Shown piece by piece: positions 167-52,043 of a stretch of 64,000 nucleotides of DNA. The notes beneath the pieces were generated by a model that was not told the origin of the DNA, made no database searches, and saw only the letters and a program-made list of their open reading frames with translations. Made by a program: the position numbers and the translations under genes. The stretch lies in contig VGJV01000001.1 in the NCBI GenBank assembly GCA_016867315.1, positions 34,863 through 98,862 on the forward strand. Reading direction: 5' to 3'. Each line of letters opens with the position of its first letter. The first letter of the stretch is position 1. The stretch is from Candidatus Liptonbacteria bacterium. GTDB lineage: Bacteria; Patescibacteriota; Minisyncoccia; UBA6257; 2-01-FULL-56-20.

Positions 167-1240
167 CTAACGGGACAGGGTGTTTTCCTCCTCCGTTTTA
201 GGAATTAACCCCTTATTTATTTCTTTTATGAGGCCCGGGCCCTTATAAATAAAGCCCGTGTAGAGTTCTACGAGGTCAGCCCCCGCGCCCAGCATTTGCC
301 TGGCGTCTTCTGCGGAGAACACTCCCCCAGTGCCGATAATCGCGAACTTCGGCGCGCGGGCCCGGATGTGGCAGATGATCTCGCAGGCTTTCGTAAAAAG
401 AGGCTTGCCGCTCAATCCTCCGGCTTCCGGAGTGTAGCCTTTCAAATTTGGTCGAGTGGTCGAAGTATTCGCCGCGATAATTCCCGCAATGTTATGCGTC
501 CGGCACACTTCGAGAATCGCATCGATGGCCTTCATGTCGAGTTCGGGAGCCACTTTCACTAAAATAGGTTTTTGTTTGGCCTCCGTGGTTTGAAGCTCAT
601 TCGCTTCTCGACGAAGACGCGTAAGGATCTGATCCAAGTGTTTTTCACTCTGAAGCTCGCGAAGGCCTGGCGTATTCGGAGAACTCACATTCACCGCGAT
701 GTAGTCCGCGTAGAGATAGAGGGTACGGAAAGAGTAAGCGTAGTCTTCGGCGGCATCTTCCTGTGGCGTGATTTTGGATTTCCCAATACTTATGCCAAGC
801 GGGATTGGAAGTTTGCGCATTCGCCGCAAGCGCGCGGCCACCACATCCGCGCCTTCGTTGTTGAAGCCCATGCGATTTATGAGCGCTTGATCTTCGGGCA
901 ATCGGAACATTCGTGGACGAGGATTCCCCGGTTGCGCATGGCGTGTAATTGTGCCCAACTCTATAAATCCAAATCCAAGTGCAGCTAACCCTCGAAGCAC
1001 TTGGCCGTTTTTATCAAATCCCGCAGCCAAGCCCACGGGATTCGGAAATTCTACGCCGAATACTTTTCTCTTTAAGCGCGGGTCACGAGTCACATAACGC
1101 CTTTCTATCATGCGGCGAAGGAAGGTGCGCTGCCCCAAAAGACGCAGAGACTTGAGCGCCCACTCATGAGCGATCTCCGGATCACGCGAAGAAAGACGGA
1201 AGAGAAGAGGGCGAAGAATATTTTCGTATAAAGACCCCAT
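167..1240 (-). CDS. pyrD: dihydroorotate dehydrogenase, class 2 (quinone-dependent); start moved to internal MGSLYEN Met
   Basis: N-terminal helix region aligns to E. coli PyrD N-terminus; class-2 motifs NRMGFNNEG, VNVSSPNTPGLR (Ser base), GGLSGKPL, GTGGV. Confidence 0.85.
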   Translation of the reverse strand: MGSLYENILRPLLFRLSSRDPEIAHEWALKSLRLLGQRTFLRRMIERRYVTRDPRLKRKVFGVEFPNPVGLAAGFDKNGQVLRGLAALGFGFIELGTITRHAQPGNPRPRMFRLPEDQALINRMGFNNEGADVVAARLRRMRKLPIPLGISIGKSKITPQEDAAEDYAYSFRTLYLYADYIAVNVSSPNTPGLRELQSEKHLDQILTRLRREANELQTTEAKQKPILVKVAPELDMKAIDAILEVCRTHNIAGIIAANTSTTRPNLKGYTPEAGGLSGKPLFTKACEIICHIRARAPKFAIIGTGGVFSAEDARQMLGAGADLVELYTGFIYKGPGLIKEINKGLIPKTEEENTLSR

Positions 1241-1511
1241 TTCGCTATTACCTTTCGCCCGCGTTGCCTGCGGTTTTCTTCGTACCGCAAGGCGCGACGA
1301 GGAGATTAGTACTTTTAGGTACAGCTCCGAGGAGCAACGCTGCGGCATGAGAAAACCGCTGCAACCCGGAGGGATACGACCAATTTTCTATATCCCTGCG
1401 TCGCTGCAGCCTCATCGTACTCACCAAGTACGCCGTCGGCTTGGCTCCTTGGGTTCTATAAAATTGGCACATATCGCGGGTGAAAATAATAGTGAAATGG
1501 GGTCTGACTCA

Positions 1512-13910: not shown

Positions 13911-14017
13911 TGGAGGAATACTACCAAGCGAAAGCGGAAGGGGTCAACCCGGTAGTAGATCCGCGAGTGGGAATTCTCAGAGTGAACTCGCGGATTCACT
14001 ACCGGGTCAATCCTTGC

Positions 14018-15360: not shown

Positions 15361-16593
15361 ATGCGGATCGCTTTTTTTTCTGACAACTTTTATCCGGAAC
15401 TTTCAGGAGTAAGTGATTCGATTCTCACACTCGGGAAAGAACTTGCCCGACGAGGACATGACGTGCTTTTTTCGGTCCCCGCATATTCTTCCGCCGCCTT
15501 CCGGCGAGCAAAAGTGCCTCTTGAAGAACTCGAGTTAGGAGACCATATTTCTATCGAACGCCGGTTTTCTCTCCCCTTCCCCGGGAGTCCCACCGGACAA
15601 GGCAGAATCGCGATTCCTCTTCCTCGACTTACGGCTCAGGTAAAAAGCTTTGCTCCTGAAGTAATCCACACTCAATTCTTTTTTGGCATGGGACTCGCGG
15701 CGCTTTCCGCCTCGAAACGTTTAGGAGTGCCGCTCGTGGGCACCAGCCATACTGCTACTAAAGAGTTTCTCGCGTACGCTCCGATACGAGCAGCCTGGTC
15801 CGACCGGCTCGTCATCAAATATATGAACTGGTTTTACTCCCAATGCGATATAGTTACTGCTCCTTCTGCTTCCGTACTCGAAGAAATGCACGCCGATGGC
15901 TTTGCCAAAGAAGGCCGGGCACTTTCGAATCCCATCGACACTGACTTATTTTCGCCCCAAGCAGACAAGGAGGCGCTCAAACAAAAATTCGGATTCGGAC
16001 CTCACACGCTTTTTCATGCGGGGAGATTTTCTGAAGAGCGCCACATCGATGTTCTTATAGAAGCTTTGGCGGAGGTACGACGTACCGTGCATGATGCGGA
16101 GCTCGCCATCGCCGGGCGCGGTGCCTCAGAAGCCTTTCTCAAACAAAAAGCGGCTAATCTGGGACTCAATGGAGCAGTGAGGTTTTTGGGGCTTCTTGAT
16201 AAACCCACTCTTGCCGCGGCTTACAATGCGAGCGATATATTTCTTATCGCGAGCACCTGTGAAACCCAAAGCCTGGTTCTTATGCAAGCCTTTGCCTGTG
16301 GTCTCCCCGCGATCGGGGTGCGCGCTCGCGCACTGCCCGAATACATCAATTCGCAAAATGGGTTTCTCACGGAACCCGGGGACGCGCACGGGATGGGCGC
16401 TTATGCCGCACGACTTCTGCTCGATGCGACCCTCCGTCGCAAACTTGGAAAAGGAGCGAGGAGCTTCTCAGAGCAATTCAGCACTCCTTCTATTGCTGAC
16501 CAATGGGAGGCAATTTATGCCGAGGCCATTGCGCGCTACCATGCGAACAGCCTAGCGCAAATAGCAAAGGGCAAACAGTTATTACCTTCATGA
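15361..16593 (+). CDS. glycosyltransferase family 4 (start moved to MRIAFFS, GAGGA RBS upstream)
   Basis: GT-B fold; EAxACGLPAIG-like C-terminal motif (QAFACGLPAIGVRA). Confidence 0.8.
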   Translation: MRIAFFSDNFYPELSGVSDSILTLGKELARRGHDVLFSVPAYSSAAFRRAKVPLEELELGDHISIERRFSLPFPGSPTGQGRIAIPLPRLTAQVKSFAPEVIHTQFFFGMGLAALSASKRLGVPLVGTSHTATKEFLAYAPIRAAWSDRLVIKYMNWFYSQCDIVTAPSASVLEEMHADGFAKEGRALSNPIDTDLFSPQADKEALKQKFGFGPHTLFHAGRFSEERHIDVLIEALAEVRRTVHDAELAIAGRGASEAFLKQKAANLGLNGAVRFLGLLDKPTLAAAYNASDIFLIASTCETQSLVLMQAFACGLPAIGVRARALPEYINSQNGFLTEPGDAHGMGAYAARLLLDATLRRKLGKGARSFSEQFSTPSIADQWEAIYAEAIARYHANSLAQIAKGKQLLPS

Positions 16594-16715
16594 ATCCCGT
16601 TAGAGACAACTGGACAATGCTTATGGCAATTCTAATATTTTGGAAAAGAACGCCTATTATTTTAAATAAGTCGTTTTGTTACGGTTCCGCAAGCGGAACC
16701 TGCCTCTAACGGGAT
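16594..16715. repeat. MITE-like element copy A: 15-bp terminal inverted repeats ATCCCGTTAGAGACA / TGCCTCTAACGGGAT plus internal perfect palindrome GGTTCCGC-AA-GCGGAACC
   Basis: Fills the whole GT4-GT2 spacer; same TIRs and palindrome recur in opposite orientation at 51263-51381. Confidence 0.55.
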
Positions 16716-17427
16716 GAATATAAGCTTTATTGTGCCTGCATATAATGAAGAGAAATACATCGGGCCCTGTCTCGAGAGCATCTTTGCGCATACGGGAGAA
16801 GAAGTGCAAGAAATTCTCGTGATCAATAATGCTTCGACCGATCGCACCGCAGAAGTCGCCGGCAAATTCCCAAAGGTACGCGTCGTGCATGAACCTAAGA
16901 AGGGACTTACTTTTGCGCGCGAACGCGGGCTTCGGGAAGCTCAGGGAGAGTTTCTTGCCTACATTGATGCGGACACTCGTCTCCACGCAGGATGGCTTCC
17001 TATCGTAAAGGAAGAATTTTCCAAACGGAACGATCTCGTATGCCTCAGCGGGCCTTTCTCCTATTACGATCTCACGCCTTCTCAAAAATTCGCAGCCGAG
17101 ATGGGATGGAAAATCTTTGCTCCTCTTACTTATGCGATCGTAGGATATATGGTGCTCGGAGCCAATTTTATCGTGCGAAAAGACGCCCTTCTTCAAGCCG
17201 GGACATTCAATACTTCCGTCGCCTTCTATGGGGAAGATACGGATATCGCCCGCCGATTGAGCAAAGTAGGAACCGTGCTTTTCCGCATGAACTTCTTTAT
17301 CTTGGGGTCAGGACGCCGACTGCTTGCCGAAGGCTTGTTAAAAACATATGCCACCTATGCTGCTAACTTCATTTCGGAAGTCGCGTGGCACAAGCCCGTA
17401 ACAAAGCGTTATAAAGATATCCGATGA
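16714..17427 (+). CDS. glycosyltransferase family 2
   Basis: SFIVPAYNEE, DADT (DXD) motifs. Confidence 0.8.
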   Translation: MNISFIVPAYNEEKYIGPCLESIFAHTGEEVQEILVINNASTDRTAEVAGKFPKVRVVHEPKKGLTFARERGLREAQGEFLAYIDADTRLHAGWLPIVKEEFSKRNDLVCLSGPFSYYDLTPSQKFAAEMGWKIFAPLTYAIVGYMVLGANFIVRKDALLQAGTFNTSVAFYGEDTDIARRLSKVGTVLFRMNFFILGSGRRLLAEGLLKTYATYAANFISEVAWHKPVTKRYKDIR

Positions 17428-26783: not shown

Positions 26784-26871
26784 TAAAAAATTTCTAATAT
26801 CTAATTACTAATTCCTAACTAAATCCCAATTTCCAGAAATGCCCCTTAGAAATTAGGAATTAGAAATTTCT
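26784..26871. repeat. AT-rich intercistronic repeat element, copy Y (gmhA-gmhB spacer); related to 10924-11038
   Basis: Inverted repeat TAATTCCTAA/TTAGGAATTA plus shared blocks with copy X; both copies lie between co-directional minus-strand genes in the same orientation. Confidence 0.5.
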
Positions 26872-50265: not shown

Positions 50266-51264
50266 TTAGAGAGTAGCTCCTACCGCTTTACAGTCTGCTT
50301 CCACCATAATGCGTACGAGTTCCGGAAACTTTGTTGTTGCTTCCCACTTAAGTTTTTCTTTGGCCTTCTTCGTATCTGCAATAAGATCATCTACTTCCGT
50401 GGGACGGAGATAGCGAGGATCAAACTCCACGTACTTTTTCCAGTCTCCTAAGCCTGCTACCTTAAACGCTTCGGCTACAAATTCTTCTACGGAGTGAGAC
50501 TCCCCTGTCCCGATTACATAGTCTTCGGGCTTTTCCTGCTGGAGCATTTGCCACATCGCTTCGCAATATTCTGGCGCATATCCCCAATCTCGTTTCGCCT
50601 CGAGATTTCCCAAATAAAGTTTTTTCTCGAGGCCGGCTTTGATGCGCGCTACGCCGCGAGAAATTTTCCTCGTCACAAACGTTTCGCCTCGGCGGGGCGA
50701 TTCATGATTGAAGAGAATTCCATTCACTGCAAAAAGCCCATACGCCTCCCGATAATTCCGAGTCATGTGATAGGCGAACACCTTCGCGGCCGCATAAGGA
50801 CTCCGAGGATAAAAAGGGGTATTTTCGCTTTGAGGAGGAGGGGTGGCTCCAAACATTTCCGAGCTCGATGCCTGATAAAACCTCACTTTCTTTTTGGTCT
50901 CTTTCTCGTAATCCTTGATGGCTTCGAGTATCCGAAGCGCACCGAGGCCCACAATCTCCGCGGTATACTCCGGAATATCGAAGGATACGCGCACGTGCGA
51001 TTGTGCGCCCAAGTTATAAAATTCATCGGGAGCTACTTCATACAAGAGCTTCCGAACCGTGTTCGCATCCGACAAGTCTCCATAATGCAAAATAAAATTT
51101 TTATGCTCCACGTGCGGATCTTGATAAATATGATCTATCCGCGAGGTATTGAAGGTCGAAGCGCGCCGAATTACCCCGTGTACTTCATACCCTTTCTTTA
51201 ATAAAATTTCGGCCAAGTAACTTCCATCCTGACCCGTGACACCGGTAAGCAATGCTTTTTTCAT
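50266..51264 (-). CDS. gmd: GDP-mannose 4,6-dehydratase
   Basis: [19 protein letters not shown]-terminus, [22 protein letters not shown] motifs. Confidence 0.9.
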
Positions 51265-51381
51265 CCCGTTAGAGACAGGTTCCGCCCGCGGAACCGTAGT
51301 AATAAGGGTTTACTGTAAAAAAACATATTTTTACAAAACATTGTAATGACATGAAATTTGATCTGGTGTCTCTCACGGGAT
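51263..51381. repeat. MITE-like element copy B (inverted relative to copy A): ATCCCGTTAGAGACA + GGTTCCGC-CC-GCGGAACC ... TGTCTCTCACGGGAT
   Basis: Same 15-bp TIR (one mismatch in right TIR) and same 8-bp-arm palindrome as 16594-16715; abuts the gmd start codon. Confidence 0.55.
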
Positions 51382-51392
51382 TCATTACCTCT

Positions 51393-52043
51393 CTACTTCT
51401 TTTTTGTACTCGTCGCAGTCGAGGAAGTTATTACTCCTGCCTCAATGGCTTTTAAGAGCTCTGCTACTCGATTGTCGCTGGGCCATTGCGCATAAATTTG
51501 ATCGGCAAGAAGTTTGGATCGCTCCGCATCTCGCCTGATGAGGTACACGTCTAAAAGCCCATAGAGAAATTGCGGGCGGCGCGGACCCAATTCCAAACCT
51601 TTTAAGAAATACTTCTCTGCTGCGTCCAAGTGTCCCGCTTTCTTCGTATGATTAAAGAGAATCCGCCGCAGCGTGCTTAATATGTACAAATCCTGTTCGA
51701 AGCTCATTCCTTTCTCACGAGCTACGATGGGATTAAAATATTCTTCGACGAAATATACGAGCTCTTCTTCTATTTCTGCGGAGCTGCTTCCCTGACTGAT
51801 GAAACTCGCCACCTCAGAAGCCATATTCCGCACTAATTCTTCCTGTCCGATCGGAGAAGGAATATCAAGCGGCACACGGAATAAATCTTTAAATTCTTCC
51901 AAAGATCGTGCTCCGTTCATTCCCCGCACTGTTCGGATGAACGAGTGAGACTTTTCATAAGGCAAGTAGCTCCCGTAATACGCTATAAACGCAAGAAAAA
52001 GAACAGCGATTATCGATATTACTTTTTTGATAGTACTGCTCAT
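51393..52043 (-). CDS. hypothetical membrane-anchored protein (start placed at MSSTIKK)
   Basis: N-terminal TM helix, no recognisable domain; lies between gmd and Wzy_C-like gene. Confidence 0.45.
   Translation of the reverse strand: MSSTIKKVISIIAVLFLAFIAYYGSYLPYEKSHSFIRTVRGMNGARSLEEFKDLFRVPLDIPSPIGQEELVRNMASEVASFISQGSSSAEIEEELVYFVEEYFNPIVAREKGMSFEQDLYILSTLRRILFNHTKKAGHLDAAEKYFLKGLELGPRRPQFLYGLLDVYLIRRDAERSKLLADQIYAQWPSDNRVAELLKAIEAGVITSSTATSTKKK

Follow-up and report, generated by a model that had tools for sequence, protein, structure and literature searches.

Short inverted-repeat elements at two start codons in a Liptonbacteria genome: probable miniature derivatives of a small mobile GIY-YIG nuclease gene

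In a 64,000-nucleotide stretch of a metagenome-assembled Candidatus Liptonbacteria bacterium genome (contig VGJV01000001.1, positions 34,863 to 98,862; hereafter "the window"), the entire spacer between a GT4 and a GT2 glycosyltransferase gene consists of a 122-nt sequence bounded by inverted repeats (copy A, 16594–16715), and a 119-nt sequence of the same build stands directly ahead of the Gmd gene (copy B, 51263–51381). What are these sequences, and how did they come to abut the start codons of two genes? Our answer is that A and B, together with a decayed third copy (C), descend as non-autonomous miniatures from a very small selfish element abundant in Patescibacteria, a reading to which we assign a probability of roughly 0.78. 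Confidence is high for the anatomy and insertion history of the copies and moderate for the mechanism of their movement. Assignment to the MITEs (miniature inverted-repeat transposable elements) finds support, as every defining feature tested here was found: terminal inverted repeats, a target duplication, small size without a transposase gene, a coding partner, and empty sites. The original prediction, made from the letters of the window, had likewise proposed a non-autonomous transposon remnant, and further copies, empty sites, and a coding partner with the same arms bear it out. The significance of the two repeats extends beyond one glycan cluster, as they are local members of a start-codon-inserting family built around a minimal GIY-YIG gene.

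Copy A lies on the plus strand and begins immediately after an ATGA (16590–16593) that is the original GT2 start-codon site and whose TGA (16591–16593) is the stop codon of GT4. Its left arm, ATCCCGTTAGAGACA (16594–16608), is followed by an AT-rich interior (16609–16682), by a subterminal hairpin formed from the perfect 8-bp palindrome GGTTCCGC-AA-GCGGAACC (16683–16700), and by the directly adjoining right arm, TGCCTCTAACGGGAT (16701–16715), which is complementary to the left arm at 14 of 15 positions. The final A and T of the right arm open the GT2 ATG (16714–16716), so that ATGA is rebuilt at 16714–16717 and the dinucleotide GA flanks the element on both sides (16592–16593 and 16716–16717). 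The predicted letters and coordinates of arms and palindrome, the occupation of the whole spacer, and the sharing of AT with the GT2 start codon were all verified; the AT/TA target duplication that had been suggested gave way to GA, visible as ATGA...ATGA. The N-terminus of GT2, MNISFIVPAYNEE, aligns with its orthologs from the rebuilt Met. From the old start codon, a miniature open reading frame (mini-ORF) of 39 codons (16590–16709) runs through the whole element to a TAA inside the right arm (16707–16709), 4 nt ahead of the rebuilt ATG.

Copy B repeats this architecture on the minus strand, on which its sequences are given here. The original Gmd start-codon site, ATGA (51382–51385), has AGAGGT just before it and adjoins the left arm, ATCCCGTGAGAGACA (51367–51381); the gene upstream ends at a TAG (51393–51395), 11 nt short of the arm. 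The AT-rich interior (51296–51366) leads to the hairpin GGTTCCGC-GG-GCGGAACC (51278–51295), with a stem identical to that of copy A, and to the right arm, TGTCTCTAACGGGAT (51263–51277); the two arms are again complementary at 14 of 15 positions. The rebuilt Gmd ATG occupies 51264–51262 and the right-hand GA 51262–51261. A mini-ORF of 38 codons plus TAA (51269–51385) has the frame relation of its counterpart in copy A, with its stop at 51271–51269 inside the right arm. The original prediction had located this second copy, with the same arms and palindrome, and had called its orientation opposite, which is true in window coordinates but not relative to the host genes: Gmd is encoded on the minus strand, and A and B are oriented alike. 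It had also described the interiors as almost unrelated; in fact, 46 of 76 aligned interior positions (about 61 per cent) and 90 of 124 positions over the whole elements are identical. Seven sites in the window match the arm with at most three mismatches, against 1.22 expected, and none of 100 shuffled sequences reached seven. As single strands, both copies fold on either strand into an arm stem plus hairpin (z-scores of −4.2 to −5.7 as DNA and −3.9 to −4.3 as RNA), the latter being the outcome of an RNA folding check that the original prediction had recommended.

Orthologous sites that lack the element were found for both copies in syntenic relatives belonging to other species, again through a search that had been recommended. 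At the copy A locus, three relatives (L121, L122, and L124; GT2 57–61 per cent identical) share the gene order DsbA-PAP2-VTT-GT4-GT2-x-sugar transferase-epimerase with the window, and their GT4 and GT2 genes abut or overlap (cataaaATGAAG, aaataATGCGC, and aaacaATGAGA, the last being an ATGA stop/start overlap). The GT2 N-termini of all three align with that of the window from the rebuilt Met, and removal of 16594–16717 from the window yields ccttcATGAATATAAGC, the same kind of stop/start overlap. Copy B is missing from the closest relative, which is syntenic at this locus (L135; Gmd 88 per cent identical); there the junction is gaaaca-ATGA-aaaaagcg, and ATGA forms the overlap with the upstream gene. 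The window without copy B reads gaggta-ATGA-aaaaagca. It is also missing from syntenic L136, in which ATGG follows a 16-nt spacer.

How widespread is the element? We scanned the exact 15-nt arm against one genome per species (596 Gb) and retrieved at least 119 loci. From these and the window, with at most three mismatches allowed per arm, we assembled a set of 115 elements, so that counts out of 115 refer to the matches listed. The further copies that the original prediction had asked for thus amount to at least 115 arm pairs; counting the exact arm alone, pairs stand at no fewer than about 100 places in other genomes. By our own arithmetic, about 1,100 lone chance matches are expected in 596 Gb, which accounts for lone matches in Flavobacterium, Haemophilus, and similar genomes. 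Inverted matches paired at distances of about 50–280 nt come mostly from Patescibacteria (Saccharibacteria, Parcubacteria, and others), with some from Planctomycetota and a few from other metagenome-assembled genomes (MAGs). They fall into three size classes with common arms: about 64–68 nt, in which the arms enclose two small hairpins; about 118–125 nt, which includes A and B and has modal lengths of 122 and 123 nt; and 277–280 nt, with a full length of 279 nt. Identity between family pairs has a median of 52 per cent. One Harrisonbacteria contig carries two copies at separate sites with interiors that are 98 per cent identical, and a second MAG carries two short copies that are 90 per cent identical inside, with a full-length copy on the same contig; such near-identity at separate sites suggests recent spread. 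Family members also occur in tandem arrays joined as ...CGGGAT-GA-ATCCCG.... The hairpin stem of A and B is absent from every other sampled genome among the matches listed, and the two copies therefore constitute one local lineage; a window-specific 23-mer (hairpin half plus right arm) had no match in metagenome contigs. A full-text literature search that included the arm sequence and covered few subscription journals found no description of the family, which is widespread and apparently undescribed; a prior description is possible.

Several observations border on this distribution. Full-length elements with perfect arms occur outside Patescibacteria in a Gammaproteobacteria MAG (L035, on a 360-kb contig), a Bdellovibrionales MAG (L109), and a Zetaproteobacteria MAG (L024, on a 2.2-kb contig). 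These cases reflect either horizontal spread or mis-binned contigs, and the 360-kb length of the L035 contig argues for at least one genuine case. Sister families have other arms and share the ATCCC...GGGAT termini (ATCCCGTAGTAG...CACTACGGGAT and ATCCCTTCGAGGACA; L003 6022–6155, L103 6457–6574, and L020 5471–5712). They stand in tandem with the main family at GGGAT-GA-ATCCC junctions, an arrangement that recalls the intergenic mosaic arrays of dRS3 repeats in Neisseria. Viruses were considered as carriers and rejected: TGTCTCTAACGGGATGA had seven matches in viral contigs, all in one conserved phage gene that lacks the left arm, and we regard this as a chance coding match.

The position of A and B at start codons turned out to be a rule of the family. 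With orientation set by the hairpin or the ORF, 88 of the 115 elements have a host ORF at least 60 codons long that starts with the AT of the right arm and the G after it. The left flank of 65 of those 88 holds an ATG, and in 63 of the 65 the same ATGN stands on both sides (49 ATGA, 10 ATGG, 3 ATGC, and 1 ATGT). Flanking dinucleotides (GA, GG, or GC) are identical in 79 of the 115 elements, with GA at both A and B. In a few cases the left flank is GTG, TTG, or CTG, and the right side is nonetheless ATG, which means that the element supplies the AT and that the duplication is 2 bp long (G plus N); a 4-bp ATGN duplication, considered as an alternative, was discarded on the same grounds. The insertion point accordingly lies directly after the xTG-N of a host start codon, and the old start codon remains at the left. 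Element and host gene agree in orientation in 56 cases and disagree in 6. For 86 elements, the downstream genes span 84 Pfam families, among them epimerases, beta-CASP RNases, MurA, RNase H, ribosomal protein L9, and glycosyltransferases. Because the host genes are this diverse, the association is with start codons. Of the predicted placement at start codons of surface-glycan genes, the start codons thus hold and the link to glycans is incidental. The alternative of a cassette regulating glycan genes finds no support, as the diversity of hosts speaks against a glycan-specific regulator and the orthologous glycan clusters of relatives lack the element.

A subset of elements stands away from start codons, with GTCA at the left and usually CA at the right (L033 315–382, L039 3421–3493 and 6833–6904, L060 3813–3934, L079 7224–7323, and L081 1744–1807). 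In these, GTCA and the A(T)CCCG that comes next look like CGTCATTCCCG in the NTS consensus from Neisseria (PMC11893778).

The longest size class identifies the coding partner. Each 277–280-nt element consists of one ORF of 86–94 amino acids (94 in the 279-bp form), and the only domain of its product is GIY-YIG (Pfam PF01541, E = 2e-16). Homologs of this nuclease form at least 3527 clusters, nearly all of 94 amino acids; among the best 120 homologs, 95 are exactly 94 amino acids long, about 100 start with M-[NS]-P-V-R, and about 110 end with L-T-G. These shared ends mean that the left arm codes for the N-terminus of the protein and the right arm for its C-terminus. Specifically, the protein starts MNPVRD, the left arm (the counterpart of 16594–16608 in copy A) encodes residues 2–6 (NPVRD), and the right arm encodes SLTG. 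The start ATG of the nuclease lies outside the element and is the old start codon of the host, at the left end; where N is A, the nuclease stop TGA overlaps the rebuilt host ATG. In the full-length copy L138, which lies between GT4 and methyltransferase genes with ATGA on both sides, the methyltransferase ATG overlaps the nuclease TGA in this way. A structure model of the nuclease (pLDDT 88.5) is closest among solved folds to the UPF0213 protein BH0048 and then to the Slx1 nuclease domain (TM of about 0.6), and is far from I-TevI. Sequence searches agree with the UPF0213 relationship (BH0048, E = 2e-9; yazA is also near). The family thereby explains many 94-amino-acid proteins of Patescibacteria that are labelled "GIY-YIG nuclease" or "excinuclease ABC subunit C".

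How could a 279-bp gene give rise to a 120-nt element with a palindrome at one end? In all 12 full-length copies, the 14 nt beside the right arm (codons L-K-R-F) are complementary to a site at about position 90 (codons R-K-R-F); between 10 and 14 of these positions match, and the long-range stem varies in sequence from element to element. In the 120-nt class, a stem of at least 7 bp adjoins the right arm in 41 of 70 elements and the left arm in 3 of 70, compared with 1.6 per cent of shuffled interiors. The stem at the right arm has 21 distinct sequences, in which pairs 3–7 switch among A-T, T-A, C-G, and G-C, a pattern of covariation. The bases ahead of it (TTACGG in many short copies, including A, and CTACGG in B) match Leu-Arg codons of the ORF; in copy A, TTAC at the 3' end of the interior plus the opening GG of the hairpin corresponds to the TTA CGG (Leu-Arg) that precedes the stem in full-length copies. 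Moreover, an arm, about 75 nt of 5' ORF, an 8-bp stem with a short loop, and a second arm add up to about 120–125 nt, as observed. From the stem position, the preceding codons, and the summed length, we infer that the 120-nt form is a full-length element from which the loop of the long-range stem was removed and that the palindrome is its closed remnant; the AT-rich interior of copy A would then be what is left, after decay, of the nuclease ORF's 5' part. In an nhmmer comparison with the full-length profile, copy A aligns at positions 1–36 and 254–279 only. A simple recent deletion of a full-length copy in the same genome was rejected as the origin of the short form, since in a global alignment of L138 with L061 and L107 the only identical stretches are the arms, with about 5 nt beside them, and the surroundings of the stem.

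A side observation concerns the shortest class. At one orthologous start codon, two Planctomycetota MAGs share a 67-nt element (L056 781–847 and L059 7080–7146), which is inserted in frame and adds 23 codons. Its first inner hairpin differs between them by two compensatory double changes (AGACATC/GATGTCT versus AGGTATC/GATACCT), which indicates that hairpin structure was kept in a vertically inherited copy.

The frames of the inserted sequence bear on host translation. The right arm presents a TAA in one frame, a TGA (with the duplicated GA) in the second, and the host ATG in the third. The probability that the interior would be open by chance, as estimated by shuffling, is 0.11 for A and 0.13 for B; across the family, 22 of 56 short elements have an open mini-ORF where 8.1 would be expected, a count that 2000 shuffles never attained. 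Elements of 64–67 nt are in frame and add 22–23 codons to the host protein. The RNA folds of A and B have free energies of −41 to −43 kcal/mol (z of about −4), and their last stem pairs include the A and U of the rebuilt AUG. These features would allow the host to tolerate the insertion by a translation relay: ribosomes starting at the old ATG would read the 38–39-codon mini-ORF through the element, open the RNA structure whose foot holds the rebuilt ATG, stop at the TAA 4 nt ahead of it, and re-initiate.

As for movement, A and B would probably rely on a trans-acting nuclease encoded elsewhere. Its substrate would be a branched or stem-loop DNA made up of the paired arms and the subterminal hairpin, which the enzyme would recognize and cut at the base with a 2-nt stagger. 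Structure-selective cutting is suggested by the relatives of the fold: Slx1 and UPF0213 proteins are structure selective. The related Ssn enzymes cleave single strands immediately 5' of a hairpin and also tolerate a stem that forms from two half-sites (PMC11893778). The 2-bp duplication fits such an enzyme because GIY-YIG cuts are typically staggered by 2 nt, which is established knowledge restated in PMC2761285.

Several points weigh against the derivation of A, B, and C from a mobile nuclease gene, or against parts of it. The empty sites belong to other species (57–88 per cent protein identity), with no strain-level presence/absence polymorphism seen; every contig of the window's own strain carries the copies, and no transposition or excision event was seen in the sequences compared. 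GIY-YIG enzymes are hydrolases that act without a covalent intermediate, a chemistry that does not account for joining at a new site. A nuclease gene was looked for and not found: in tblastn searches with 12 family nucleases the 64-kb window gave nothing significant (best E of 0.12), and the 1.8 kb of the same strain past its left end holds neither a nuclease gene nor a further copy. Outside the arms and the stem, short and long forms show weak homology, so that the derivation of one from the other is mainly an argument from architecture. The occupancy of start codons could reflect selection against other insertions as much as target choice. The mini-ORF is open in only about 40 per cent of short elements, and read-through is therefore no general requirement; a Shine-Dalgarno-like tetramer lies upstream of only 9 of 65 old start codons, which makes this signal uninformative.

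A wider proposal is that the full-length form represents a new class of prokaryotic mobile element, to which we give somewhat less than even odds. The 279-bp gene would be its own transposon, with a structure-selective GIY-YIG nuclease as sole product, terminal inverted repeats that double as the codons of the protein ends, targeting of start codons with a rebuilt ATG, and miniatures of about 65 and 120 nt across Patescibacteria and some other phyla. As part of this tentative proposal, the element would take over the ribosome-binding site and ATG of its host and give back a new ATG in overlap with the element's stop codon. We know of no bacterial transposase of the GIY-YIG catalytic type. If the mechanism is true, the element would be about the smallest self-contained mobile element known and its nuclease a type new to bacterial transposition. 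It would also represent a near-harmless way to insert into genomes that are about 90 per cent coding: land on a start codon, borrow the translation signals, and regenerate the ATG. For annotation, the family accounts for odd spacers of about 120 bp and shows that start codons beside ...CTAACGGGAT-G have been rebuilt by insertion. The many natural pairs of nuclease and recognition structure may also find applications.

The closest known system is Ssn/NTS, in which a 94-amino-acid GIY-YIG single-strand DNase is associated with hairpin repeats and whose authors note an architecture like that of an insertion sequence (Chenal et al. 2025, Nat Commun, PMC11893778). Like Ssn, the full-length relatives found outside the window encode a single-domain GIY-YIG protein of about 94 amino acids, and the nuclease gene is bounded by hairpin-forming repeats that are also present as many intergenic copies without the gene. 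At its foot the stem reads ATCCCG...CGGGAT, with ATTCCC in copy C, and is thereby similar to the core of the Neisseria NTS, ATTCCC...GGGAAT. Unlike in Neisseria, where a complete hairpin of 20–50 nt stands on each side of the gene, the elements described here have one split stem with the gene or its remnant in the loop. Their arms are coding, and their copies stand at start codons with a 2-bp duplication, neither of which is reported for Ssn. Ssn nucleases are assigned to CDD family cd10448 (PMC11893778); the nearest solved or annotated relatives of the element nuclease are UPF0213 proteins. A link to canonical Ssn through plasmids was sought and rejected, as tblastn returned only genes of the UPF0213/yazA type with 37–44 per cent identity. 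The 2025 study left open whether units of nuclease plus hairpins are mobile; the duplications and empty sites reported here make that question testable.

The strongest competing explanation draws on Ssn: the copies would be domesticated Ssn-type recognition sites that mark where incoming or replicating DNA, in single-stranded form, is cut by a GIY-YIG DNase specific for single strands, modulate recombination or transformation near surface-glycan loci, and are kept for the benefit of the host. Single-domain GIY-YIG nucleases of about 94 amino acids do bind and cut single-stranded DNA beside hairpin repeats that cluster near surface-protein genes, and the Ssn stem can form from two half-sites, as would apply here (PMC11893778). 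Copies A and B and the full-length L138 all lie in glycan gene clusters, and the compensated hairpin of the 67-nt Planctomycetota copy speaks for a maintained structure. We nevertheless consider this explanation unlikely. The 84 Pfam families of host genes, including ribosomal protein L9, RNase H, and MurA, do not suggest a surface-related role, and the published Ssn-related motif (HGTCWYN(0-2)YYVSBRHN(0-5)WNVSBRGN(0-2)RNCYNB) fits not one of the 115 elements, taken together with 40-nt flanks, and nothing in the window; the NTS consensus is likewise unmatched. Duplications, near-identical copies at separate sites, and empty orthologous sites are signs of insertion events. The domestication scenario is, however, compatible with a mobile origin and competes with it only over present function.

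Other known systems resemble the family in part. Correia elements of Neisseria are MITEs about 100–150 bp long that end in inverted repeats, duplicate a short target, lie near genes, and form a long stem in the transcript. The elements described here share with MITEs of this type their size, terminal repeats, short duplication, gene-adjacent copies, lack of transposase coding, and long stem in the transcript. To our knowledge, bacterial MITEs derive from insertion sequences of the DDE type; here, by contrast, the coding partner is a 279-bp GIY-YIG nuclease gene, and insertion takes place at a start codon with the element giving two bases of the rebuilt ATG. Rickettsia palindromic elements, of about 100–150 bp, are inserted in frame within coding sequences at many positions. 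They are comparable, by description rather than by sequence, as palindromic repeats of about 100–150 bp that are tolerated in expressed genes, as is the 64–67-nt class with its 22–23 added codons; unlike them, the present family is tied to the start codon. Rickettsia is among the motif-rich genera in PMC11893778.

Two further groups were compared with the family. IS200/IS605 and REP/RAYT elements depend on an HUH (Y1) transposase, which forms a covalent intermediate and leaves no target duplication. Like the elements described here, they are very small, with subterminal recognition hairpins, scattered derivatives without the gene, and a strong orientation bias (discussed in PMC11893778); unlike them, the present family uses a hydrolase of the GIY-YIG type, carries a 2-bp duplication, and is bounded by true terminal inverted repeats. 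Derivation from IS200/IS605 was rejected because the coding partner is GIY-YIG rather than HUH and a duplication is present. GIY-YIG homing endonucleases of the I-TevI type share the catalytic fold with the element nuclease, as do Slx1 and UPF0213 proteins, and the 2-nt stagger typical of such cuts (PMC2761285) agrees with the 2-bp duplication. Slx1 cuts branched DNA, which the paired arms would form. Unlike I-TevI-type enzymes, the element nuclease has no separate DNA-binding domain and is found at many host genes without any intron or intein; it scores 21.7 bits against the group I intron endonuclease model TIGR01453, below the cut-off of 56. A classical homing endonuclease was therefore rejected, as a single-domain protein of 94 amino acids spread over 84 Pfam host families contrasts with one cognate gene. 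UPF0213 genes such as yazA, unlike the elements, are ordinary single-copy host genes.

The copies could instead be a host regulatory RNA structure in which the 15-bp stem hides the start codon and makes expression of GT2 and Gmd dependent on upstream translation or on a trans-acting factor. The fold of −41 to −43 kcal/mol, with the A and U of the rebuilt AUG in its last pairs, and a mini-ORF that is open above chance are what such a device would need. Against it stand the poor conservation of the interior, the presence of the same element before unrelated genes in many lineages, orthologous glycan clusters that lack it, and the fact that the larger family members are just a nuclease gene. Searches of Rfam gave no match in the window at the gathering score and none for the elements even at E = 1. 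An effect on translation is explained more simply as a by-product of insertion, and we regard a dedicated regulatory role as improbable.

Far less credible still is an invertible promoter segment between inverted repeats that would make the expression of glycan genes phase variable. Such a segment would account for the inverted repeats around an AT-rich stretch of about 90 bp directly upstream of glycan genes, for a weak sigma-70-like match in copy A (9 of 12 positions), and for the 6 of 62 family members in which the interior is flipped relative to the host gene. But copy B has no promoter-like site, the start codon itself lies within the repeat, orientation is fixed in about 90 per cent of copies, and no recombinase gene adjoins A or B; duplications and a nuclease-coding full-length form are foreign to invertible promoter segments. 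A plain promoter or terminator cassette was likewise rejected, with only the weak 9/12 site in A, none in B, and no terminator. Chance palindromes, or cassette boundaries of the integron attC type, can be dismissed: the elements do fill gene-gene spacers and their GTTAGAG and CTCTAAC resemble attC core sites, but the attC consensus runs RYYYAAC ... GTTRRRY and the polarity here is reversed (GTTAGAG 5' and CTCTAAC 3'), no integrase is found among the annotated neighboring genes of the copies, no shuffled window reached the seven arm matches, and at least 115 paired copies exist.

The third copy in the window, C, is a decayed relative of 71 nt on the plus strand (106–176), with arms ATTCCCTTAGAGATA (106–120) and TATTTCTAACGGGAC (162–176) that are complementary at 11 of 15 positions. 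Its hairpin (142–160) adjoins the right arm, as in A and B, and has a different stem. Copy C lies away from any start codon, in the spacer between the pyrD-like and dihydroorotase genes, both of which are encoded on the minus strand. The pyrD-like ORF (167–1348, minus strand) ends at a TAG within the arm at 162–176, and the last four residues of its protein (TLSR) are encoded by the arm or the junction; copy C has therefore remodeled the 3' end of a host gene.

Nearby, a 19-nt inverted repeat (AGACCCCATTTCGCTATTA / TAATAGTGAAATGGGGTCT; 95 per cent complementary) at 1232–1250 and 1487–1505 surrounds a 236-nt segment between pyrF and the pyrD-like gene, both on the minus strand. The segment contains an ORF of 74 amino acids (1248–1472, minus strand) without a Pfam match, and the arm nearer pyrD includes the likely pyrD ATG (ATGGGGTCT). 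This pair, of which the fetched loci hold no further copy, may be a second, unrelated small start-codon insertion. Two other inverted repeats in the window are unrelated to the arm family: a 22-nt hairpin at 13947–14007 (91 per cent complementary, 17-nt loop) and an AT-rich pair of 24 nt, 34 nt apart, at 26788–26869.

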